Source: Candidatus Buchananbacteria bacterium (GTDB lineage: Bacteria; Patescibacteriota; Patescibacteriia; CAIXNZ01). From it: a stretch of DNA of 64,000 nucleotides. This document shows positions 48,121-58,221 of the stretch, piece by piece; position 1 is the first letter of the stretch; each line of letters opens with the position of its first letter. The DNA is taken from the NCBI GenBank assembly GCA_014729025.1, contig WJKP01000045.1, forward strand, positions 20,015 through 84,014, read 5' to 3'. The translations under genes and the position numbers were made by a program. The notes under the pieces are model-generated. The model did no database searches. It saw nothing but the letters and a program-made list of their open reading frames with translations, and was not told where the DNA came from.

Positions 48121-48173
48121 AAATAAGCAGTTTTGTCGAATAAAAAAACACGCCCTTTTACGGGCAGTGTTTT

Positions 48174-48278
48174 TTATTCATCATCTAAATCAGCTGTAGT
48201 TGGCTCATAAAATTCATAATCTTGTTCGCAAGTACATTTATCAATATCATTATCACAAATAGGACATTTTTCCATCAT
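48174..48278 (-). CDS. Possible 34-aa Cys-rich acidic micropeptide (MMEKCPICDNDIDKCTCEQDYEFYEPTTADLDDE). It could instead be the body of an sRNA.
   Basis: The ORF lies between a consensus promoter and a terminator-like hairpin (aaaacacgccc...gggcagtgtttttt at 48141-48172). No SD is present. Confidence 0.25.
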   Translation of the reverse strand: MMEKCPICDNDIDKCTCEQDYEFYEPTTADLDDE

Positions 48279-48321
48279 CTTTTTTTGTCTTAATTTTTAT
48301 TTTAAAATAAATATATTCAAG

Positions 48322-48351
48322 ATTATAAAATATGCATAAAATACTTGTCAA
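48322..48351 (-). promoter_or_regulatory. Consensus sigma-70 promoter (TTGACA-N18-TATAAT) on the minus strand
   Basis: On the minus strand, ttgaca is at 48346-48351 and tataat at 48322-48327. The promoter drives a ~180-nt unit that ends at the 48141-48172 hairpin. Confidence 0.5.
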
Positions 48352-48443: not shown

Positions 48444-48917
48444 CTATTTATTTTTAATATATTTTTTAAATTTTTGCAATTTTTCCTTTTGTGGTTTCTC
48501 AATATGAATTTCGTTCCTTTTTTTCTTAATTTTTCTATTGGCTTCAGAAAAAGACAGGCCTTGATATATAAAATGGGCAGCTAAAATCGTTGGGGCACGG
48601 CCATGACCGTTTTTACAATGCAAATAAATTTTAACTTTTTGGTCAAGCAAAGCTTCTATTGTTTTAACACCCACCCAAAGTTGTTTTAAAGTCGGTGCGG
48701 TATGATCTTTAACCGGCAGCCATAAAAAACAATCAACACCAATTGGTTGATCAATCCTTTCATCTTCAATTGAAATATCAGCTTTAATACCTTTATTTAA
48801 AAGTTCTTGTTTAAAATGCCTTTGACAACAAGCATTTGTCCCCAAATATATCAAAGGAGTAATTTTATTATATTCAAATTTAACATGGTCTTTTTTCTTG
48901 TCTTTAGATTTTGCCAT
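48444..48917 (-). CDS. Dual-specificity (Cys-based) protein phosphatase
   Basis: The CX5R P-loop is HCKNGHGRAPT. A general-acid Asp is upstream in VKDHTAP. Confidence 0.7.
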   Translation of the reverse strand: MAKSKDKKKDHVKFEYNKITPLIYLGTNACCQRHFKQELLNKGIKADISIEDERIDQPIGVDCFLWLPVKDHTAPTLKQLWVGVKTIEALLDQKVKIYLHCKNGHGRAPTILAAHFIYQGLSFSEANRKIKKKRNEIHIEKPQKEKLQKFKKYIKNK

Positions 48918-49884
48918 AAATATTTATATCAATTTTAGACAATTGTTTTTGCAACGGTAATTTTTCCAATAAACCATGTTTTGCTCCCATAGCCTGAATT
49001 ACACCACTAGAATTTAAAATTGCCAAACGCAAAGCATAATCCCAGTCAGATTTTAAAATTATACCGGCACAAAACCCGGATCCAAAAGCATCACCAGCTC
49101 CAGTAGTGTTAAGTACTTCTGCTTTTAAAACATCAGCCTTATAAATTAAAATGTCATCAGATAAATAAGCGCCTTTTGAACCGTCAGTAATTACCAAGTA
49201 ATTAGGAGTTAATTTATCTAAAACTTTAAAAATTTTTTTAATATCTTTTTTTCCTGATAATTTGGCTGCTTCGGATTTATTAATATTAAAAATAGTTGTT
49301 TGTTTAATTAAAGGCTCTAATTTAGCTTTGCCATGCTTTAATTCCCCGCTACCCGGATTCCAAGCAATTTTTATTTTATTCTTTTTCGCAAAATTGAATA
49401 TTTTTTTCAATAAACTTAAATTCCCAGCCAAAGAAGTAATATAAAACCATTTAGTTTTTAATTTATCCCATTGAAAATCGGAAGAAGAAAAATTAGCACT
49501 GGCACCGCGATAAACTAAAATCGTGCGGTCACCGCCAGGCGTAATCAAAATTGTTGAATAAGCTGTTTTGTGTTTTTTATCAGCTACTAAATTTGACGGA
49601 TTTATATTATTATCAGCCAAGACTGACATTATTTCCATGCCATAAATATCATGGCCGATTTTTGATACAACCGAAGTATTTAATCCCAAATTAGCAAAAG
49701 TATAAGCTGCATTGGTTGCCCCACCACCAGTGTCAAAATAAATATCACCTAGTTCTATTTTAGCACCATAAGCAAAACATTCACCAACTCCGCCTTTAAA
49801 TTTATCACTTTTAATTATCTTAAAATCTTTGGAAACTAAAAAAACATCTTTGGTGGCTGAACCGATTGTAATTACATCAAACAT
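48904..49884 (-). CDS. PfkB-family carbohydrate/nucleoside kinase (ribokinase-like)
   Basis: The N-terminus is MFDVITIGSATKDVF. The GG dipeptide is TGGGATNAAY and the anion hole is NTTGAGDAFGSGF. The start is set at the internal Met (49884) to avoid overlap with the upstream gene. The ORF-track start 49965 is the alternative. Confidence 0.7.
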   Translation of the reverse strand: MFDVITIGSATKDVFLVSKDFKIIKSDKFKGGVGECFAYGAKIELGDIYFDTGGGATNAAYTFANLGLNTSVVSKIGHDIYGMEIMSVLADNNINPSNLVADKKHKTAYSTILITPGGDRTILVYRGASANFSSSDFQWDKLKTKWFYITSLAGNLSLLKKIFNFAKKNKIKIAWNPGSGELKHGKAKLEPLIKQTTIFNINKSEAAKLSGKKDIKKIFKVLDKLTPNYLVITDGSKGAYLSDDILIYKADVLKAEVLNTTGAGDAFGSGFCAGIILKSDWDYALRLAILNSSGVIQAMGAKHGLLEKLPLQKQLSKIDINIYGKI

Positions 49885-49906
49885 AATTTTATAGTAATTT
49901 AAATCT

Positions 49907-50812
49907 TTATTTAAATACTTTAAATTTTTGCCAGTATTTAATGAAAAATTGATAATTTTTGGCAATTAAATCTATTGTTTCTTTTTTATTGATTTTCTTA
50001 TCACGGTATTTTTTCAAGGATGGGGAAAATATAGTCCGGCCAATGGCAAAACCAAAAATTTCTTCAAAGCCAGCAGCGTTTTTCAACCAATATTTAACAA
50101 CTTTTTTAGGAGCGGCGCGACCTAAAACAATTATTTTAAAATCTTTTTTATTATCCTTTTTTATTTCTTTAATAATCATTGGCCAGTCAGATTTTTTCTC
50201 CATGGCTTCTAATTTCCAAATATCAGGCTCTATGCCAAAAACTCTGATTTCTTTAATTGCTCGCTTGGTTAAATTAGGTCTGGCTTTTTTATCATAATTA
50301 AATTTATCCTTATAAACTTCCAACTGTTTATCGGTTGCCGGAACCAATAATTCAAACAAAAGGCCGATTTTCTTTTTTTGGCAAAAATTATTTATTTTCT
50401 TTAATCTTTTTAATTGCATTAAATTATTCTTTTTATTACTTGGATTATAACGCACCAAAACTTTGGCATAATCAGGTTTAAATTTTAAAATATGCTTGTC
50501 AAAATCTTTACCGTACTCAAAATCAAATACCTTTTGTCCACTTTTTTCCGTAGTTAAAATAGTCACAATATTCATTTTCTTGGCTTTTTTTAAAATTTCC
50601 GAACCAAATTGTTCATCAACCAAGATGCCTAAATATTCTTTAAACGAACTTTTTAAATGTACTTTTAAAAAAGCCTGCCAGATTATTTGTTTTGTATCCT
50701 TAATTTTTTGCACTTGCGCTTTATTAATCGGCTCATCCCAACCAAATAAATTGCTTCTAAAAGTTGAACGATGATCAAATGGTAAAATATAAAGCTGTTT
50801 TGGTTTTTGCAT
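49907..50812 (-). CDS. hypothetical protein (possible TIM-barrel/DUF2090-like partner of the adjacent PfkB kinase)
   Basis: It is 301 aa and basic. ILPFDHRSTF...IIVLGRAAPKK...GFAIGRTIF is present. The call is unverified. Confidence 0.3.
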   Translation of the reverse strand: MQKPKQLYILPFDHRSTFRSNLFGWDEPINKAQVQKIKDTKQIIWQAFLKVHLKSSFKEYLGILVDEQFGSEILKKAKKMNIVTILTTEKSGQKVFDFEYGKDFDKHILKFKPDYAKVLVRYNPSNKKNNLMQLKRLKKINNFCQKKKIGLLFELLVPATDKQLEVYKDKFNYDKKARPNLTKRAIKEIRVFGIEPDIWKLEAMEKKSDWPMIIKEIKKDNKKDFKIIVLGRAAPKKVVKYWLKNAAGFEEIFGFAIGRTIFSPSLKKYRDKKINKKETIDLIAKNYQFFIKYWQKFKVFK

Positions 50813-50814
50813 AA

Positions 50815-51783
50815 TTATTTTAATAATTTATTAACTCGTTTAATAATTTCTTGATAATTAATTTTATATTTATTTAATAATCTATCTGCACTGCCGGACT
50901 CGCCAAAACTGTCAGGCATACCTATTACCTCAAGAGGCACAGGATAATTTTGAGTCAAAACTTCAGCGATAGCGCTACCTAATCCTCCATTAACCTGGTG
51001 TTCTTCAATAGTCACAATTTTATTTGTTTTTTTAGCCGAAGCAATAATTGTTTTTTTGTCAATTGGTTTGATTGTATGACAATTAATTACTTCCGCTTTA
51101 ATTTTATTTTTAGCCAAATTTTCAGCTGCCATCAGCGCTTCATAAACCATAAGACCGCAAGCTATTATTGTCACGTCTTTACCTTTTTTTAAAACTTCAG
51201 CCTGGCCGATTTTAAAAGATTTTTGAGTATCAGTAAAAACCGGTGATTTAGCCCGGCCATAACGAATATAAACGGGGCCTTTAATTTTAGCAGCTGCCCT
51301 AACAGCTTTTTTAGTCTCCAAATAATCACTGGGCGCAATTACCGTCATATTCGGTAAAACTCGCATAATTGCCAGATCTTCCAACGCCTGATGCGTCGCA
51401 CCATCCGGTCCGACATTTAAACCGGCATGCGAACTGACTATTTTAACATTAGCATTATTATAACAAATTGAAACTCGAATTTGTTCCCAATTTCTACCCG
51501 GACTAAAAACCGCAAATGAGCACATAAACGGAATAAAACCGTCCAAAGCCAAACCAGTTGCCACACCAGCCATATTTTGCTCAGCCACGCCAACTTCAAA
51601 AAAACGTTTAGGGTATTTTTTGCCAAAGTCCAAACAGCGGGTTGATTCAGCCAAATCTGCTGAAACCGCAACAATCTTCTTGTTCTTTTTACCTAATTCT
51701 AATAACGCCTCGCCAAACGCATCACGGCAAGCTTTGCTTGAAATTTGAGAATTGAGATTTGATATTTTTTTGTTATTTGTCAT
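50815..51783 (-). CDS. Transketolase, C-terminal (pyrimidine-binding) subunit
   Basis: AFGEALLELGKKNKKIVAVSADL, FEVGVAEQNMAGVATGLALDG and HAGLNVGPDGATHQALEDLAIMRVLPN are present. Confidence 0.85.
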   Translation of the reverse strand: MTNNKKISNLNSQISSKACRDAFGEALLELGKKNKKIVAVSADLAESTRCLDFGKKYPKRFFEVGVAEQNMAGVATGLALDGFIPFMCSFAVFSPGRNWEQIRVSICYNNANVKIVSSHAGLNVGPDGATHQALEDLAIMRVLPNMTVIAPSDYLETKKAVRAAAKIKGPVYIRYGRAKSPVFTDTQKSFKIGQAEVLKKGKDVTIIACGLMVYEALMAAENLAKNKIKAEVINCHTIKPIDKKTIIASAKKTNKIVTIEEHQVNGGLGSAIAEVLTQNYPVPLEVIGMPDSFGESGSADRLLNKYKINYQEIIKRVNKLLK

Positions 51784-51793
51784 TTATTATTTA

Positions 51794-52627
51794 TTATTTC
51801 AAAGCGCCCTGTAACTCTTTCAATGCCCTCTCAGCCTCAATTTCAGAAGGTACTTTGCCGTGCCATTGCCATTTGTTTTCCATAAAACTAACACCTTTCC
51901 CCGGAATGGTATGGGCAATAATAACTTTGGGTTTATTTTTTATTTGCTTAGCTTTTTCTATGGATTTTAAAATTTGCTTCATATCATTACCATCAATTTG
52001 CTGCACATGCCATTTAAAAGCCTGATATTTTTCATATAAATTATTCAAAGGCATAATATTTTTTGTAAATCCGTCAATTTGTATCATGTTACGATCAACA
52101 ATAAAAATTAAATTATCTAATTTATATTTAGCAGCCGCCATAACAGCTTCCCAAGTCTGACCTTCATTATGTTCGCCATCACTGGTTATACAATAAACAA
52201 AATGCTTCTGTTTTTTTAATTTAGCTGCCAAAGCCATGCCAACTGCCACTGAGACACCCTGGCCCAAAGGACCAGAAGAATGCTCTAAAGCCGGGAAATC
52301 ATGATATGAAGGGTGTCCTTGCAAAGGAGAACCTAATTTTCTAAGTGTTTTTAATTTACTAATGGAAAAATAACCACTTCTGGCCATAGCGGCATAACGA
52401 ACAGGCACAACATGACCGTTTGATAAACATAAACGATCCCTTTTTTCCCATTTTGGCTTTTTCGGATCATGATTCAAAATATTAAAATACAAGGCAACAA
52501 AAATATCAGCCAAGCCCAAAGAACCGGCTGAATGGCCTGAACCTGCCTCAGCCAACATTTTTATAATATCTTGTCTAATAATATTAGCCTTTTCTTGTAA
52601 TTGCTTTACTTTATAACTTTTTTTCAT
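51794..52627 (-). CDS. Transketolase, N-terminal (TPP-binding) subunit
   Basis: GSGHSAGSLGLADIFVALYF, DRLCLSNGH and ITSDGEHNEGQTWEA are present. Confidence 0.85.
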   Translation of the reverse strand: MKKSYKVKQLQEKANIIRQDIIKMLAEAGSGHSAGSLGLADIFVALYFNILNHDPKKPKWEKRDRLCLSNGHVVPVRYAAMARSGYFSISKLKTLRKLGSPLQGHPSYHDFPALEHSSGPLGQGVSVAVGMALAAKLKKQKHFVYCITSDGEHNEGQTWEAVMAAAKYKLDNLIFIVDRNMIQIDGFTKNIMPLNNLYEKYQAFKWHVQQIDGNDMKQILKSIEKAKQIKNKPKVIIAHTIPGKGVSFMENKWQWHGKVPSEIEAERALKELQGALK

Positions 52628-52630
52628 AAA

Positions 52631-53071
52631 TTAAGCTGAATCAATCTTATTTTCTTTAGCCCATTTGGGGGTTACATACAAAGAACAATGACATCTACCC
52701 CATATTTCAATTTCACCCATATATAAATAACAAGGACAAATTATTTTTCTATCAGCCTCGGGATTATTGGATAAAACGCGACAGGGACAATAACATTGCT
52801 GGCCTTCTTTTAAATATTTTCCCATAGATTCAGCTAAACCTTTTAAAGTTTCTTCATTGGGATTTAATTTAATTTCATCTTGATATTTTGTTGCATTCAT
52901 CCATTTAACCTGGCGCTGCCAAGTATCTTTAAAAAATTCGAAATTAAGACTGTCAGGACTTATCTGATTAAAACTTTTCTGATTATGACAAAAAGGACAT
53001 TCACAAGGAGCTTTTTTATCACGATAAATATAACCACAAACTGAACATCGATATATTTTTATATCAGTCAT
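52631..53071 (-). CDS. Rubredoxin-domain fused ferredoxin:thioredoxin reductase catalytic-subunit-like (FTR-like) protein
   Basis: The N-terminal rubredoxin knuckles are CSVCGYIY...CPFC. The C-terminus CYCPCR-x14-CPC-x12-CHCSLYV matches the FtrC CPC...CPC...CHC signature. Confidence 0.65.
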   Translation of the reverse strand: MTDIKIYRCSVCGYIYRDKKAPCECPFCHNQKSFNQISPDSLNFEFFKDTWQRQVKWMNATKYQDEIKLNPNEETLKGLAESMGKYLKEGQQCYCPCRVLSNNPEADRKIICPCYLYMGEIEIWGRCHCSLYVTPKWAKENKIDSA

Positions 53072-53079
53072 AATTAAAA

Positions 53080-53292
53080 TTATTCAAACTTATCTTTTTT
53101 AATATGCTCAGCCAATTCATCCTGCAATAAATTGATGTGTTTTTTTAAATCTACTCGCATTTGTTCATAAACACCTTGACAGCCCTTACATTTTATTTTT
53201 TTAGCATCCTTAATATAAAAATTTTCCAAGCGCCATAAATCATCCAAAGAATTATGAAGCATTTTAATTAAATTGTAATTAGCATTTTTCAT
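53080..53292 (-). CDS. hypothetical small protein
   Basis: It is a 70-aa ORF containing CKGCQG, located between rpe and the FTR-like gene. Confidence 0.35.
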   Translation of the reverse strand: MKNANYNLIKMLHNSLDDLWRLENFYIKDAKKIKCKGCQGVYEQMRVDLKKHINLLQDELAEHIKKDKFE

Positions 53293-53301
53293 AATTTTAA
53301 A

Positions 53302-53982
53302 TTAATCTTTAATTTTATTTTTTATTTGATTAACTATTTTTCTTACATTTTCCGCTTCAAAAAACATTGTCCCGGCAGCAATAATATTAACGCCTGATTT
53401 TGCCACCTTAGCAATATTATTCAAATTAACGCCGCCATCAATTTCAATATCCAGTTTGGGATATTTTTGCCTAGCCTGTTTGGCTTTATTTAAAATAGAA
53501 GGTCTTAAAACCTGACCTCCCCAGCCAGGCTTAACGCCTAATAAAAATAATACATCAATTTTCGGGATAAATTTTTCAACTTGATTTAATTTTGTTTCAG
53601 GATTAATAGCCAAACCAACTTTAAATTTTCTTTTTTTTAAATATTTAATTAAATCAAAAATATCCTCATCATTTTTCATTGCTTCATAATGAAAAATGAT
53701 TTTTTTAACTTTTTTAAAATTCTGCCATTTTTTGATTAATTTTAAAGGCTCAGCAACCATTAAATGCAATTCATAATTCAAATACGTTCTGATTGTTTTG
53801 ATTTTAGACAAATCATAAAAAGTCTTATTTTTGACAAACTTATTGTCCATGCAATCAATCTGCACCAATTTAAAATAAGGTGCAACTAAATTAAGCTTTT
53901 CTTTAAATTCTGAAAACGAGTGAGTTAAAAGCGTAGGTACTAATTTTATATTTTTATTATTTTCTTTACTCATATATACCAT
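53302..53982 (-). CDS. rpe: Ribulose-phosphate 3-epimerase
   Basis: LVQIDCMDNKFVKN (metal-binding Asp), a GGVNLNNI-type C-terminus and the (beta/alpha)8 length are present. Confidence 0.8.
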   Translation of the reverse strand: MVYMSKENNKNIKLVPTLLTHSFSEFKEKLNLVAPYFKLVQIDCMDNKFVKNKTFYDLSKIKTIRTYLNYELHLMVAEPLKLIKKWQNFKKVKKIIFHYEAMKNDEDIFDLIKYLKKRKFKVGLAINPETKLNQVEKFIPKIDVLFLLGVKPGWGGQVLRPSILNKAKQARQKYPKLDIEIDGGVNLNNIAKVAKSGVNIIAAGTMFFEAENVRKIVNQIKNKIKD

Positions 53983-54003
53983 TATTTTCAGGCGAAAGGC
54001 TAA

Positions 54004-54465
54004 TCAGCCTCTGGCTGAAAATTCTTTATTCTCAATTTTTTTTATTTTATTAATCCTTCTGATTCTGCGGGGCTTGGCGTCAAATTTGGCATTTAAAAAA
54101 GTATCAACTATTTTTTTAGCTTTATCAAAAGGCAGCCCCCAGCCTGGCAAACACATAATATTAGCGTCATTATGTCTTCGTATTTCTTTGGCTTCTTGCT
54201 CATTTTTAACTGACACAGCCCGAACACCTTTGACCTTATTGGCAATGATACACATGCCATAAGAGGTGCCGCAAATTAAAATTCCTTTAGAATTTTTATC
54301 TTTAGCCACAGCTTGAGCGACTTTATATCCATATTGCGGATAATCATCATCTTTTTCGTATTTTAAATTGCCTTTATCTTCATAAGGCTGATTGATTTTA
54401 TACAAATATTTTTTTATTTGCTCTTTTAAATCAAATCCGGCATGATCTGCGCCTAAATAAATCAT
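54004..54465 (-). CDS. rpiB: Ribose-5-phosphate isomerase B
   Basis: MIYLGADHAGFDLKEQIKKYL and ILICGTSYGMCIIANKVKGVRAV are present. The active-site Cys is in GTSYGMC. Confidence 0.85.
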   Translation of the reverse strand: MIYLGADHAGFDLKEQIKKYLYKINQPYEDKGNLKYEKDDDYPQYGYKVAQAVAKDKNSKGILICGTSYGMCIIANKVKGVRAVSVKNEQEAKEIRRHNDANIMCLPGWGLPFDKAKKIVDTFLNAKFDAKPRRIRRINKIKKIENKEFSARG

Positions 54466-54504: not shown

Positions 54505-56526
54505 TTATAATTCAATTATATCACCTTCTTTAACATTATTATTATTTTCCTCTGCTGAAGCCAGTAAATTAGCCGCTGGCAATTTTTCTTTTGTCGAGCC
54601 TTTTTCTGCTTTTTCTGCTTTTTCTTGAACTTGTTGTGAAGATTCTTTTTTCTCCGGAGCTAACACTTTTTCTTGTTCTACAGATTCTTTTTCTGCTTCA
54701 ACCGGTTGTGTTTTTTTAATTTCCTTTTGTATTTCTGGTCTTGAAATTTCTTGTTTGGTTGGCTGTACTGGCTTAGTTTCTTTTATTGTCTTTTGCTTGG
54801 CTAATCCTATGGGCTTATCTTCTTTAATTGGTTGGATTTTTTGAGGTTCAGACTGTTTTGCTGATTCCGATTTTTTTTCTTCAGGTGATTTACCTTTAAA
54901 ATCAACGGTTTTTTGCGAAATCTGTGATAAAGAAACAGCTTCTTGTTGTTGTTGCGTTTTTTCTTTACTCACTTCATCAGGTTTAACACCTATTTCTCCG
55001 CGGCGAGCTTTTTTAAGGCATTCTTTACAAAAAACTGGACGCACATTATCTGGCTTAAAAGGTACTTCAATTTCTTTTTTACAGCCAGAACAAACAGCTG
55101 GCCAGCCCTTATCTTTCTTTTTTTCATTTGATGTGGTTTCCGCCTCTCCTTGTTTTAATTTTTGCTCATTTGACTGTTGAGAAATCAGCTTACCTTTTCC
55201 TTCAACTTCCTTTTTGTCTTCAGTTATTACACCACTCCATCTTTTTATTTTATCTTCAACTACATTTTTGGGTTTAGCGTATCTTTCCCTGGAAACATTA
55301 ATAACTTTTTGTTCGTTACCCAAAGAATCACTATAAACCGGGGGTAACCCTCTAGCTGAAAATGGTTCAGAGGCTATCCCGTCAATCATTAATTTTAAAT
55401 AGATATGAAACTTTGGCAAAGCGACCAGATCTTCCTGAGTTAAATAAGGCATAAACTCTTTTTCTAAAAATTCAGCATCAGCTGCACCGACCCGAAAACA
55501 CATTAAAGTGCCGACATTACCAAAAACTGCCGGTCTAACTACCTCGCCTAATTGTTCTATATATTGATGAGCAATAATTAAATTCAAGCGATACTTACGA
55601 GCCTCTGATAAAATATCAGCAAAAGAATCGGTCGCAAAATTCTGAAATTCATCAACATATAAATAAAAATCTTTCCGATTATCTTCTGGAATATCAACCC
55701 GGCTCATAGCTGCCAACTGAATTTTTGTAACCATCATGGCACCAAGTAAAGCAGAAGCGTCTTCACCAATTCTCCCCTTGGAAAGATTTAGAATTAAAAT
55801 TTTATTTTCATCCATTACTTTTCTTAAATCAACTGCTGATTTAACCTGACCGACTACATTACGAATTAATGAAGTTGATAAAAACTGCCCCACCTTGTTT
55901 TGAATCGGTGAAACAACTTCTTGTAAAACTCTTTCATTCCATCTGGGAAATTCATCAACCCAAAAAGAACGAACTACCGGATCAGTAATTTTAGCTACTA
56001 CTTTTTTACGATATTCTTTATCAACCAACATACGGTTAATTCCCAATAAAGTACTATCTGGATATTCCAAAAGAGCCAAAATCGCATTTCTTAAAATATA
56101 TTCCAAACGAGGTCCCCAAGAATCAGCCCATAACTTTTTAAATACACCAATTAAACCAGAAGCAACCAAATGACGATGCTCAGAAGAAACTTTTTCCAAA
56201 ACATTAAATGAAATGGGATAATGCAAATCAGACGGATTAAAATAAATAACATCATTAATACGACTGCTTGGTATCCAGCTCAACATCTTTTCGGCAGTAT
56301 CACCATGAGGATCAACATAACAAACCCCTTTACCGGCAATAATATCCGAATAAACCATATTTTCAATCAAAGTTGTTTTCCCCATACCGGTTTTACCAAT
56401 AATATAAACGTGACGACGCCGATCATCTTCTTTAATCCCAAAAATCCGCTCTCTGTTTCTAAAAGTTGTTACAGCAAAAGGTGTGATTCCGCTTTCCACT
56501 GCTTTTTTAATTTGTTCTGTTACCAT
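54505..56526 (-). CDS. VirD4/TraG/TrwB-like type IV coupling-protein ATPase domain protein. It has no N-terminal TM, a C-terminal Zn ribbon and a K/E-rich tail.
   Basis: Walker A is HVYIIGKTGMGKTTL and Walker B is FYLYVDEFQNF. RKYRLNLIIAHQYIEQL and an all-alpha-domain-like AVFGNVGTLMCFRVGAADAEFLEKEF are present. The C-terminal zinc ribbon is CSGCKKEIEVPFKPDNVRPVFCKECLKK. Confidence 0.55.
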   Translation of the reverse strand: MVTEQIKKAVESGITPFAVTTFRNRERIFGIKEDDRRRHVYIIGKTGMGKTTLIENMVYSDIIAGKGVCYVDPHGDTAEKMLSWIPSSRINDVIYFNPSDLHYPISFNVLEKVSSEHRHLVASGLIGVFKKLWADSWGPRLEYILRNAILALLEYPDSTLLGINRMLVDKEYRKKVVAKITDPVVRSFWVDEFPRWNERVLQEVVSPIQNKVGQFLSTSLIRNVVGQVKSAVDLRKVMDENKILILNLSKGRIGEDASALLGAMMVTKIQLAAMSRVDIPEDNRKDFYLYVDEFQNFATDSFADILSEARKYRLNLIIAHQYIEQLGEVVRPAVFGNVGTLMCFRVGAADAEFLEKEFMPYLTQEDLVALPKFHIYLKLMIDGIASEPFSARGLPPVYSDSLGNEQKVINVSRERYAKPKNVVEDKIKRWSGVITEDKKEVEGKGKLISQQSNEQKLKQGEAETTSNEKKKDKGWPAVCSGCKKEIEVPFKPDNVRPVFCKECLKKARRGEIGVKPDEVSKEKTQQQQEAVSLSQISQKTVDFKGKSPEEKKSESAKQSEPQKIQPIKEDKPIGLAKQKTIKETKPVQPTKQEISRPEIQKEIKKTQPVEAEKESVEQEKVLAPEKKESSQQVQEKAEKAEKGSTKEKLPAANLLASAEENNNNVKEGDIIEL

Positions 56527-56538
56527 ATTTAAATAAAA

Positions 56539-58221
56539 TTAATCAATAAATGGAATATTACCAGGAATAGCTCCTGTCGATTTATCTGATTCAGAATCCT
56601 CTTTTTCTTCTTTTAGTTTTGTAGATTCTGTTTCTTTTTTGGTTTCCTTTGCTTTTTGGGGTTCAGCTTCTTGTTTTTTTATTTCTGCTAATTTTTCTTT
56701 TTCTTCTTTAGCTATTTCTGCCAATCTATCTTCTCTGACCGGCCGTGTCTTTTTAAATTTATCTTTATCTTTGGCAAATTGCATTTCAAAATCATCACTA
56801 TCATAATCAAAAGTCGGCTCAAATTGTTTTTCTTCTTCAGGTGTTTCTTGGTGAGCTTGTTCTGCCCTATCTTCAACCGGTTTTAATGGGGCTTCTTGAA
56901 CGGGTAACCCAACCGGCGCTGCTGCTTTGGTAAATTCTGTTTTCTTTAATAAAGGCGCTTTAACATACATACTTGGGAAATGCCACAAAGAAGCTAATTC
57001 TTCACTACATAATGGTTTAGCTGGTACACCAACAACTGTATCGCGGTTAATATAAGCTCGAATAAATTGATTTTTACGCCATTTTTTACGAGCTTGAATT
57101 AAAATATATTGAGGTGAATTAGTGCCAGTTTCTTTTAACATCGGCCTTAAACCATTAGTATTGACATCTGTCCATTGCTTTATAGAACCAATCATCGCAT
57201 TAACACCCAATGTTTTATTCATTTTATCTTTTTCTGCTACATAAAGATAACGTATCTTAGTATTAAAAGCCCATTTGGCTGTTTTTCTTTCAATACCATC
57301 AACTATTTCTTTTTGAGCTGAAGTTAAATTCATTATACTGGGCTGTTTTTCATCTACTTTAGCCTCTTCACCGCCCCCTAAATTCACCCCAGCTAATTGA
57401 TCTGTAAATTCATTTATAAAATCAGCTGGAAATTTAAACAGACTTCCAAAAAATCCTTGTTTTGGCTTTGATTTAATACCTATAACTTTATTTACCTCTT
57501 CTTTACCTTGTTTAATGCCCCAATCAACCGCCAAAGGAGTTAAAATATATTGAACCCAAATTTGCTCGCCTGGACCTATAGAACTCATTGTTTCTAATAA
57601 TGCTGCCATAGGATCAACAAAAGTTTCAGAAAAACGGTGCTCAAATTTTTGCCATGATTTTAAAGGAATCAACGGATTAGCTGAAAGTGTAAATTCTACA
57701 CCCCAAATATCATGTGTATCATTGGGATAATCTTTAGGAACAGAATTAACATAATCTTCAACCTCAGTAATTTCCGCATCAGGAAATTGAGAATAAACAG
57801 CCGCCTCAACCAAATTACGCCAATCACCTGGACAACGAATTAGAAACTGAATATTGCCTTCAATACTAACCAACTCAACTGATAATGAACGCATGAACTC
57901 ACCTTCAATATATGTCCCCCATTTAGTAAAAGTTGTATGAGCGCCTTGTAAGTGATCAAAAAAGTTTTCCATCGCCTGAATACTTTGCTCATTTCTTTTA
58001 GGGACATCTATAGCCAAAATTACCGGACCAGGCTGTTTACTAGCCCATTTTCCGCCAATATATAAACGATATTCAGGATATATTAAATAACGCAAAACAA
58101 TATAAACAAATAAAACCCAGAGCCAATACTTAAATAACAGGATATATAATATCCCAAAAGTTGATTGACCTTCAAACTGGGCTAAAAATTGATAAAAATA
58201 AGTTAAATCTATTTCAATCAT
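56539..58221 (-). CDS. hypothetical membrane-anchored protein, probable partner of the downstream coupling ATPase
   Basis: The N-terminal TM is ILYILLFKYWLWVLFVYIVL. A ~400-aa globular domain and a K/E-rich tail follow. Only 12 nt separate it from the ATPase gene. Confidence 0.45.
   Translation of the reverse strand: MIEIDLTYFYQFLAQFEGQSTFGILYILLFKYWLWVLFVYIVLRYLIYPEYRLYIGGKWASKQPGPVILAIDVPKRNEQSIQAMENFFDHLQGAHTTFTKWGTYIEGEFMRSLSVELVSIEGNIQFLIRCPGDWRNLVEAAVYSQFPDAEITEVEDYVNSVPKDYPNDTHDIWGVEFTLSANPLIPLKSWQKFEHRFSETFVDPMAALLETMSSIGPGEQIWVQYILTPLAVDWGIKQGKEEVNKVIGIKSKPKQGFFGSLFKFPADFINEFTDQLAGVNLGGGEEAKVDEKQPSIMNLTSAQKEIVDGIERKTAKWAFNTKIRYLYVAEKDKMNKTLGVNAMIGSIKQWTDVNTNGLRPMLKETGTNSPQYILIQARKKWRKNQFIRAYINRDTVVGVPAKPLCSEELASLWHFPSMYVKAPLLKKTEFTKAAAPVGLPVQEAPLKPVEDRAEQAHQETPEEEKQFEPTFDYDSDDFEMQFAKDKDKFKKTRPVREDRLAEIAKEEKEKLAEIKKQEAEPQKAKETKKETESTKLKEEKEDSESDKSTGAIPGNIPFID

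Follow-up and report, generated by a model that had tools for sequence, protein, structure and literature searches.

A rubredoxin-like/FTR-like fusion protein, predicted to be a disulfide reductase, within a pentose-phosphate gene cluster of one Patescibacteria clade

The locus described here raises the question of why a gene for a protein resembling ferredoxin:thioredoxin reductase (FTR) lies among genes of the non-oxidative pentose-phosphate pathway. The known FTR-like [4Fe-4S] disulfide reductases comprise the FTR of phototrophs and a few characterized archaeal and bacterial FDRs, and little is known about thiol reduction in ultra-small fermentative CPR bacteria. A sequence-only reading of this stretch of DNA (64 kb, hereafter the window) had recognized a rubredoxin-fused FTR-like protein, here called Rd-FTR, in a pentose-phosphate cluster with a split transketolase, and had proposed that it serves as a thiol-redox switch on pentose-phosphate flux. 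Pfam matches and gene coordinates confirm the protein and its setting, but the proposed switch is not supported. The features concerned are as follows.

48444..48917, minus strand: dual-specificity CX5R phosphatase (DSPc; PF22785 and PF00782; motif HCKNGHGR)
48904..49965, minus strand: PfkB-family sugar kinase (PF00294, 3.2e-39)
49907..50812, minus strand: DUF2090 protein, class I aldolase candidate (PF09863, 5e-38; aldolase half of NF047869)
50815..51783, minus strand: split transketolase, C-terminal subunit (TKC, tktC), with pyrimidine-binding and C-terminal domains (PF02779, 4.4e-45; PF02780, 1.7e-36)
51794..52627, minus strand: split transketolase, N-terminal TPP-binding subunit (TKN, tktN; PF00456, 3.9e-60)
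52631..53071, minus strand: Rd-FTR gene, 146 aa, predicted rubredoxin-like plus FTR-like disulfide reductase
52646..52900, minus strand: FTR-like [4Fe-4S]/disulfide domain of Rd-FTR (aa 58-142)
52973..53053, minus strand: rubrerythrin-type rubredoxin-like domain, N-terminal in Rd-FTR (aa 7-33; C9, C12, C25, C28)
53080..53292, minus strand: orf70, 70 aa, no family, directly upstream of Rd-FTR (between it and rpe)
53302..53982, minus strand: Rpe, ribulose-phosphate 3-epimerase (PF00834, 1.4e-39; NF004076, 170 bits, above cut-off)
54004..54465, minus strand: RpiB, ribose-5-phosphate isomerase B (PF02502, 3.4e-45; NF004051, 161 bits)

Rd-FTR does lie between rpe/rpiB and the split transketolase genes, as had been read, but it is not the direct neighbor of rpe in the window, where orf70 intervenes. 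The orf70 product was considered as a redox partner and rejected: it carries a single conserved Cys, matches no family, is present in only some Rd-FTR carriers and missing from most, and is kept where Rd-FTR has been lost. The 301-aa protein previously called unknown is recognized by Pfam as DUF2090, for which a LacD/DeoC-related class I aldolase assignment draws on PMC9007349 among other support. Among relatives, DUF2090 and the PF01116 aldolase are mutually exclusive; a single-sequence structure model of the DUF2090 protein (pLDDT 40) was set aside. The true start of PfkB is likely the ATG at 49887, which yields a 327-aa protein that matches its relatives. Scanning the window for Rfam families and tRNAs gave no matches.

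Rd-FTR is a two-domain protein in which a Cys4 rubredoxin-like module precedes an FTR-like domain carrying the six Cys residues and the His of that family. Its translation reads C9-x2-C12-x12-C25-x2-C28 in the first domain, which matches RUBY_RBDX (PF21349) over aa 7-33 with 34.4 bits (E=1.4e-8; cut-off 26.5 bits), and C95-P-C97, x14, C112-P-C114, x12, C127-H-C129 in the second, which matches FeThRed_B (PF02943) over aa 58-142 with 52.7 bits (E=4.8e-14; cut-off 22 bits). Judged by its sequence, the first module is of the rubrerythrin-type rubredoxin-like kind, and its metal may be Fe or Zn. The six Cys of the FTR domain align column-for-column with those of FDR, the glutaredoxin/FDR fusion, classical FTR catalytic subunits (FTRc), and archaeal stand-alone forms. 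Based on homology to 1DJ7/2PVD and 4TPU, we infer that C95, C112, C114, and C127 are the ligands of a [4Fe-4S] cluster and that C97 and C129 form the redox-active pair. His128 separates C127 from C129, the final Cys pair of the motif.

All ten Cys are invariant among 24 homologues at 60-79% identity, as are approximately 40 further positions in sequences down to 60% identity, whereas His128 is found in 22 of the 24 and is replaced by Gln in the other two. The reading frame is unbroken in all of the roughly 30 homologues and about 20 loci. The gene has thus been kept under constraint. These data make it scarcely plausible that Rd-FTR is a decaying, non-functional passenger without a selected role, even though one nested lineage or more has been able to dispense with the gene.

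The family is narrowly distributed. At 50% identity it makes up a single cluster in a set of 1.84 billion representatives, and it occurs in 9 of 185,579 species genomes, all of them Patescibacteria, and a search for homologues with the FTR domain alone recovered the same family only. Carrier records are labeled Buchananbacteria, Falkowbacteria, and Parcubacteria, and they form one clade across which a block of approximately 16 kb, from SecDF to MetRS, is syntenic. In a neighbor-joining tree of TKN plus TKC, there is one gain of Rd-FTR and at least one nested loss, represented by three loci within the carrier clade (L021-23) that are negative for the gene by tblastn. Outgroup Patescibacteria possess the rpiB-rpe-tktN-tktC-pfkB cluster without it. 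Rd-FTR therefore entered the cluster a single time, taking a place between rpe and tktN in the ancestor of one clade of Patescibacteria.

This history bears on the idea that Rd-FTR is dedicated to redox control or repair of the operon enzymes, acting on them directly or via thioredoxin so that flux would be tied to the redox state of ferredoxin. Its candidate targets would be RpiB (Cys65, C72, and C105), TKC (C19, C107, C209, and C235), PfkB, and the CX5R phosphatase. In keeping with this idea, all the relatives found preserve the synteny of Rd-FTR with rpe and transketolase. The gene adjoins rpe in every carrier locus, including the rearranged L008 (rpe, Rd-FTR, pfkB), and its place in each of the others is between rpe and tktN. 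However, because the carriers form one clade sharing some 16 kb of synteny, the conserved order reflects a single insertion and not repeated selection. Moreover, unrelated genes separate Rd-FTR from its neighbors in four loci (L010, L012, L014, and L011), and the clusters of relatives have also received unrelated insertions, including glycosyltransferase, membrane protein, SET, PDDEXK, and GIY-YIG genes. Independent recurrence of a linkage between FTR-like and sugar-phosphate genes was not found in unrelated lineages.

Gene packing can be read in a similar manner. Around Rd-FTR, the gaps in the window are only 9, 8, and 3 nt, and in five loci (L004, L006, L061, L062, and L008) one or both of its junctions show start/stop overlaps or gaps of 0-6 nt. 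Such packing is in line with co-expression. In L004 the overlaps involve both rpe and tktN, in L006 rpe, and in L061 tktN; they are of the type associated with translational coupling and would suit dedicated control. Against this, tight co-directional packing is the rule across the window (median intergenic gap 11.5 nt). Scans for promoter and terminator consensus sequences inside the cluster performed no better than shuffles, and were not used to define the operon.

The cysteines of the operon enzymes provide a more direct comparison. It is established enzymology that the catalytic Cys residues on which RpiB and CX5R phosphatases rely are sensitive to oxidation, and Cys65 of RpiB corresponds in position to the catalytic Cys of the E. 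coli enzyme. Furthermore, TKC and RpiB of the carrier clade are unusually rich in Cys compared to outgroups. But no CxxC pair is present in any of the operon enzymes, among them transketolase, Rpe, and RpiB, in which regulatory Cys pairs were to be mapped. In the three loci that lost Rd-FTR, none of the conserved Cys residues of RpiB, Rpe, TKN, TKC, or PfkB has disappeared; those retained include RpiB C65/C72/C105, TKN C146, TKC C19/C107/C209/C235, and PfkB C63/C299. C72 and C105 of RpiB are invariant in all carriers and in the nested loss lineage; both also occur in outgroup L024, and C105 in outgroups L039-41. No co-variation was found between the presence of Rd-FTR and Cys residues of the pentose-phosphate enzymes. 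The phosphatase gene, in turn, is found in a subset of relatives and in only some carriers.

The proposed switch also drew on phototrophs, in which FTR and thioredoxin were said to control these same enzymes. The classical chloroplast targets of the FTR/thioredoxin system are FBPase, SBPase, PRK, and GAPDH/CP12. Rpe, Rpi, and transketolase are not known to be among them, and so the parallel was overstated. Taken together, the single insertion, the Cys residues kept after loss, the clusters lacking the gene, the generally tight packing, and the lack of a thioredoxin-fold gene (see below) make dedicated control of the operon enzymes unlikely, although the gene's constant place beside rpe lends a specific link to the sugar-phosphate genes some plausibility.

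The anticipated thioredoxin or ferredoxin partners were likewise not encountered at the locus. Motif scans revealed no thioredoxin-, glutaredoxin-, or ferredoxin-like open reading frames in the window, and Pfam scans of 20 further window open reading frames gave no such match. No ferredoxin, thioredoxin, glutaredoxin, or thioredoxin-reductase genes were found in the window or in the approximately 20 carrier loci. The sole motif-scan matches were DsbA-like proteins in outgroup loci L039-41, all of which are without Rd-FTR.

This absence of a nearby protein partner, together with the rubrerythrin-type character of the rubredoxin-like module, could be taken to mean that Rd-FTR is an electron-transfer or oxygen-defense protein, which would pass electrons to acceptors such as peroxidases, O2, or low-molecular-weight disulfides, or would reduce a small thiol compound or a 4-Cys microprotein. 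The microprotein (48174-48278) has a conserved CPxC...CTC pattern and its own strong promoter and terminator, and among the loci compared it is confined to the Rd-FTR clade. Yet it persists, as does orf70, in loci from which Rd-FTR is gone. In addition, conservation of both active-site Cys residues and of the FTR-type His is what disulfide chemistry would lead one to expect, and relatives are encoded beside thioredoxin- or glutaredoxin-fold proteins, which characterized relatives are reported to reduce. Given these observations, we regard a role in electron transfer or defense as quite improbable.

On balance, we lean modestly toward the view that Rd-FTR reduces disulfides with electrons from ferredoxin, and that it shares expression with the pentose-phosphate genes rather than serving as a dedicated switch on them. 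The rubredoxin-like center would take single electrons from a low-potential donor and hand them on to the cluster. As donor, the best candidate is ferredoxin reduced by 2-oxoacid:ferredoxin oxidoreductase, an enzyme common in CPR (PMC5220378). The cluster would then cleave the C97-C129 active-site disulfide, allowing reduction of a substrate disulfide. Somewhat less securely, we suggest that, as with related enzymes, the substrate has a thioredoxin or glutaredoxin fold, its gene lying elsewhere in the genome, and that the outcome is a route of thiol maintenance independent of NADPH. The location of the gene in a pentose-phosphate/glycolysis operon would then represent constitutive co-expression of a hitch-hiking insertion.

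It is also conceivable, but we give it little credence, that ferredoxin-driven Rd-FTR acts independently of thioredoxin, either directly on operon targets (RpiB, the split transketolase, and the CX5R phosphatase) or on the clade-specific 4-Cys microprotein. If so, it would constitute the first FTR-type redox control of pentose-phosphate or glycolytic flux in a non-phototroph, and would provide an ultra-small genome with a minimal thiol system.

Ultra-small fermentative CPR bacteria mostly lack the pentose-phosphate pathway's NADPH-generating oxidative arm, and a clade-specific, self-contained Rd-FTR fusion would be a plausible NADPH-independent solution. The practical value of the finding is modest: Rd-FTR is a small, defined candidate of 146 aa for biochemistry, and carrier genomes and the nested L021-23 lineage offer a natural presence/absence pair, but no long-standing question is opened by the protein itself.

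Comparison with known systems places Rd-FTR closer to FDR-type and stand-alone proteins than to classical FTR. The sequence-only reading had taken CPC-x14-CPC-x12-CHC as the signature of the FTR catalytic subunit. The motif is present, but classical FTRc has the spacing CPC-x16-CPC-x8-CHC (Synechocystis 2pvd). Relative to Rd-FTR, the 2pvd fragment has +2 residues in the first spacer and -4 in the second, and its similarity in sequence is only marginal (E=0.18). Between the last two Cys, classical FTRc and Rd-FTR both have a His (equivalent to His86; His128 in Rd-FTR). FTRc comes from phototrophs, which the present organism is not, and pairs with a variable subunit, FTRv, as a heterodimer; the window open reading frames scanned with Pfam included no FTRv gene. 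By analogy with FDR, the fused rubredoxin-like domain probably replaces FTRv.

The x14/x12 spacing is shared with the FDR of the archaeon Methanosarcina acetivorans (PDB 4TPU), which also has a CxxC-x12-CxxC rubredoxin-like domain, and both domains align with those of bacterial Rd-FTR. In 4TPU, however, the rubredoxin-like domain is C-terminal to the FTR-like domain, and Tyr occupies the position of the His; indeed, all representatives whose rubredoxin-like domain stands at the C-terminus are of the CYC or CFC type. This FDR is reported to reduce a single atypical M. acetivorans thioredoxin, which PMC6262447 calls MaTrx5 in its text but MaTrx1 in its Table 1. The glutaredoxin/FDR fusion of Desulfotalea psychrophila (PDB 7PWE) likewise has x14/x12 spacing, but its N-terminal module is glutaredoxin-like (substrate-type) where that of Rd-FTR is rubredoxin-like (donor-side), and it carries CYC in place of CHC.

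The nearest relatives of the FTR domain are stand-alone proteins of 90-110 aa from Asgard archaea and Bathyarchaeota (for example, P0076 and P0194), which score 57-64 bits and have x14/x12 spacing and CHC identical to Rd-FTR, but which lack the rubredoxin-like domain and occupy other gene neighborhoods. The contexts of these archaeal relatives show no link to sugar-phosphate genes; the Bathyarchaeota gene is divergently adjacent to a thioredoxin gene. An uncharacterized family with CPC-x14-CPC-x13-CWC (P0040, P0048, P0050, P0083, P0109, P0116, P0146, and P0168) has the same domain order as Rd-FTR, but is separate from it (E ~1e-14 to the Rd-FTR profile). Its second spacer is 13 or 17, its first is 15 or 16 in two members, and the His position is held by Trp in seven members and by Ile in P0040. 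At one such locus, of archaeal-type context, the gene is directly followed by a 97-aa CPHC glutaredoxin-like gene. Because such genes are adjacent in relatives and FDR is reported to reduce a thioredoxin, a thioredoxin-fold partner is the norm among these proteins.

Since the FTR domain alone scores nearer to stand-alone CHC-type proteins than to FDR, the Rd-FTR fusion looks independent of the FDR fusion. What is new in Rd-FTR is thus an FDR-like architecture that has apparently been re-invented, with reversed domain order and a plant-type active-site His.

Both halves of the proposed FTR-like protein with a preceding rubredoxin-type domain were confirmed by Pfam at scores above the curated cut-offs. 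The 146-aa protein (termed Rd-FTR) is encoded in a window of approximately 31% G+C whose minus strand carries almost every gene between about 14 kb and 63 kb. As read from the translation, its first cysteine block (C9-x2-C12-x12-C25-x2-C28) lies in a RUBY_RBDX domain (aa 7-33, E=1.4e-8), and the second (C95-P-C97, x14, C112-P-C114, x12, C127-H-C129) in a FeThRed_B domain (aa 58-142, E=4.8e-14, 52.7 bits versus a cut-off of 22). Pfam also agrees with the sequence-only reading on the neighbors, namely RpiB, Rpe, a two-gene transketolase (N- and C-terminal subunits TKN and TKC), a PfkB kinase, and a CX5R dual-specificity phosphatase. The 301-aa protein left unnamed in that reading is now identified as DUF2090. 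Relevant features of the window are as follows.

54505-58221, minus strand: DUF8128 protein and TrwB/VirD4-like ATPase, directly upstream of rpiB
53080-53292, minus strand: orf70, encoding a helical 70-aa protein, between rpe and the Rd-FTR gene
52631-53071, minus strand: Rd-FTR
49907-50812, minus strand: DUF2090, candidate class I aldolase (LacD-like), PfkB-linked and downstream of the transketolase genes

Approximately 20 loci carrying Rd-FTR share the order SecD-SecF-sigma70-DUF8128-TrwB/VirD4-like-RpiB-Rpe-[orf70]-RdFTR-TKN-TKC, followed by (DUF2090 or PF01116 aldolase)-PfkB-[phosphatase]-...-rsmI-like-GDSL-MetRS; one rearranged locus (L008) reads Rpe-RdFTR-PfkB. The DUF8128 and TrwB/VirD4-like pair, whose ATPase has a long low-complexity tail and a C-terminal treble-clef zinc finger, precedes rpiB in all carrier loci that reach upstream of this gene. 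At one or both junctions, Rd-FTR lies 0-10 nt from its neighbor or overlaps it at a start/stop codon in the window, L001, L004, L006, L007, L061, L062, and L008. L003 has wider gaps of 33-46 nt, as does L007 on its rpe side. Unrelated genes part Rd-FTR from rpe or tktN in L010, L012, L014, and L011: GT4-like glycosyltransferases, a small membrane protein, and a PD-(D/E)XK protein. Repeated unrelated insertions have been accepted by the pentose-phosphate cluster of this clade:

L010:7635-9951, L012:8735-9868, L014:1843-3015: GT4-like glycosyltransferases after rpe
L010:10534-10968, L012:10714-11124, L014:3864-4307: conserved membrane protein of ~140 aa after Rd-FTR
L006:6177-7298, L010:11787-12956, L012:11928-12983: secreted protein of ~350-390 aa splitting tktN from tktC

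The product of orf70, present in eight distinct carrier loci and the window, has no detectable family. We rejected it as a dithiol partner because just one of its two cysteines is conserved among five aligned copies.

Farther downstream, the carrier clade has a conserved Cys-rich acidic micro-ORF of 32-37 aa (consensus CP[IV]C..N.PCTC.QDY....PTT[AG]D.DD[ED]), whose unit with promoter and terminator spans 48151-48351 of the window (minus strand):

48351-48322, minus strand: promoter, perfect sigma-70 consensus (TTGACA-18-TATAAT)
48174-48278, minus strand: micro-ORF (34 aa), MMEKCPICDNDIDKCTCEQDYEFYEPTTADLDDE
48166-48151, minus strand: terminator, hairpin and T-run

Copies occur at L001:12516-12620, L003:14815-14919, and L062:13698-13811, and also in L004, L006, L010, L012-L016, L018, and L021-23; it is present in carriers and in the loci of the same clade that have lost Rd-FTR (L021-23). 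It has no match in Pfam and did not turn up in the outgroup loci compared.

The placement of Rd-FTR had been taken to suggest a thiol-redox switch on non-oxidative pentose-phosphate flux. A metagenome scan with TKN yielded 43 further loci, and more distant Patescibacteria carry rpiB-rpe-tktN-tktC-pfkB without Rd-FTR. In a neighbor-joining tree of concatenated TKN and TKC, all carriers fall in one clade, within which L021-23 are nested. These three loci (records Ga0209498_1000340, Ga0114946_10000527, and OMKS01003402.1) keep orf70, have a 120-bp hairpin-rich spacer in place of Rd-FTR, and gave no Rd-FTR remnant by tblastn. Therefore, Rd-FTR was gained once, descended vertically, and was lost at least once. 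The synteny with rpe and transketolase is indeed conserved in relatives, but it records a single evolutionary event in one clade rather than repeated selection for adjacency. The spacer itself (L021:5880-6001, likewise L022 and L023) consists of several short G+C-rich palindromes (GGGCGAAAACGCCC, GACGGCTTTAGCCGTC, GCCTCCTAAAGGAGGC, GGGCGTTTTCGCCC) and may represent the scar of a deletion, a stack of terminators, or a small repeat element.

Regulatory cysteines were sought in the presumed targets. RpiB, Rpe, TKN, TKC, and PfkB contain no CxxC, and all cysteines conserved in the carriers' RpiB, TKN, TKC, and PfkB are unchanged in L021-23, as is Rpe C44, though this residue varies among carriers. 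Neither the window nor any carrier locus yielded a gene for a thioredoxin (Trx), glutaredoxin (Grx), or ferredoxin-like protein. Genes in this genome are as a rule tightly packed and co-directional (median intergenic gap in the window 11.5 nt; 32 of 46 gaps at most 25 nt). Adjacency is the sole observation pointing to the proposed switch, and we regard a dedicated role of Rd-FTR on the operon's enzymes as possible but unlikely.

The PfkB-linked cluster has alternative aldolases. DUF2090 and the class II aldolase PF01116 are mutually exclusive there: 16 locus identifiers have only DUF2090, seven only PF01116, and none both, counts that take in near-identical duplicates such as L001/L017 (further positions of either aldolase: L004:10259-11182, L006:8287-9204, L010:14635-15555, L062:10238-11155). 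The pattern parallels the displacement between IolJ and DUF2090 that Price et al. 2022 (PMC9007349) proposed. It suggests that PfkB and DUF2090 together form a kinase/aldolase step on a fructose-bisphosphate-type or DKGP-type substrate, in CPR said to lack PFK.

A word-indexed search for Rd-FTR returned 31 clusters at ≥60% identity, all with the two-domain architecture except one fragment. When 1.84 billion representatives were searched exhaustively with a profile, a single 50%-identity cluster reached E<1e-30. The next 149 matches, sorted by motif, form four groups:

Group 1: FDR (ferredoxin:disulfide reductase) types with C-terminal rubredoxin-like module, CYC or CFC
Group 2: many stand-alone proteins of 90-120 aa, with CHC, CLC, CKC, and others
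Group 3: a separate family with N-terminal rubredoxin-like module, CWC (CIC in one member), mostly x13
Group 4: multi-rubredoxin proteins without an FTR domain

In one representative, P0032 (148 aa), an N-terminal half that is hydrophobic and unrelated is followed by the C-terminal half of an Rd-FTR-family FTR domain (GKQAYCPCRILTGNELADKKVICPCYFYMGEVELQGHCHCSLY); this protein is likely a truncated copy or a chimera produced in assembly or gene calling. A search of 185,579 species genomes gave nine Rd-FTR loci, all of the Patescibacteria type, some under Gammaproteobacteria labels. Carriers include the MAGs GCA_964590345.1, GCA_975847985.1, and GCA_042568725.1 and the 565-kb Falkowbacteria contig CAVZGV010000003.1. 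L009, L013, and L017 (CAZHFK010000031.1, CAYNWH010000015.1, CAZPVP010000003.1) are titled "uncultured Gammaproteobacteria bacterium" despite the typical Patescibacteria syntenic block, and these titles are probably taxonomic mislabels.

A "hypothetical protein" from a Candidatus Buchananbacteria MAG matches the window protein at 100% identity. Other members are named [quoted passage not shown] (JGI) and "FTR catalytic domain-containing protein" (NCBI); the domain content is already recognized by automated annotation. NCBIfam has no model covering the family, and literature searches turned up no publication about Patescibacteria FTR-like proteins.

By homology, a [4Fe-4S] cluster would be held by C95, C112, C114, and C127 next to a disulfide between C97 and C129, and His128 would assist, as His does in FTR. 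Electrons would enter at the Cys4 module, as was reportedly proposed for FDR by Kumar in 2015 and Prakash in 2018. They would probably come from reduced ferredoxin, because 2-oxoacid:ferredoxin oxidoreductase is widespread among CPR (PMC5220378), and most likely pass to a Trx/Grx-fold protein whose gene lies elsewhere.

The best solved sequence relative is the ferredoxin-dependent disulfide reductase of M. acetivorans (4TPU, E=2.6e-14, both domains), followed by the Desulfotalea glutaredoxin/FDR fusion 7PWE (E=3.6e-9), whereas the classical FTR catalytic subunit (FTRc; 2PVD) matches marginally (E=0.18). In a joint alignment of Rd-FTR, FDR, Grx-FDR, FTRc, and archaeal stand-alone forms, six cysteines are the sole invariant block. 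Classical FTRc has spacers of x16/x8, whereas x14/x12 is common to Rd-FTR, FDR, Grx-FDR, and the archaeal forms. Thus, the six cysteines of the claimed FTRc signature are present, but their spacing is really of the FDR/FTR-like type. Because of this spacing, Rd-FTR falls outside classical FTRc. FDR has CYC and a C-terminal rubredoxin-like module; in contrast, Rd-FTR has CHC, keeping the plant-type His, and an N-terminal module. Domain order and the Tyr position likewise set it apart from strict 4TPU-type FDR. Rd-FTR most likely works as FTRc and FDR do.

When scored by itself, the FTR domain has its nearest relatives among stand-alone CHC proteins, with the best matches in Heimdallarchaeota/Hodarchaeales and Bathyarchaeota, and on this basis the fusion looks independent of that in FDR. 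Unlike Rd-FTR loci, the archaeal relatives lie beside genes for Trx-fold proteins: a stand-alone FTR-like gene of Bathyarchaeota is divergent from an adjoining thioredoxin gene (L065/L066:4540-5270). A gene of the N-terminal-rubredoxin CWC type is directly followed by a 97-aa glutaredoxin-like ORF with CPHC (L068:4749-5499).
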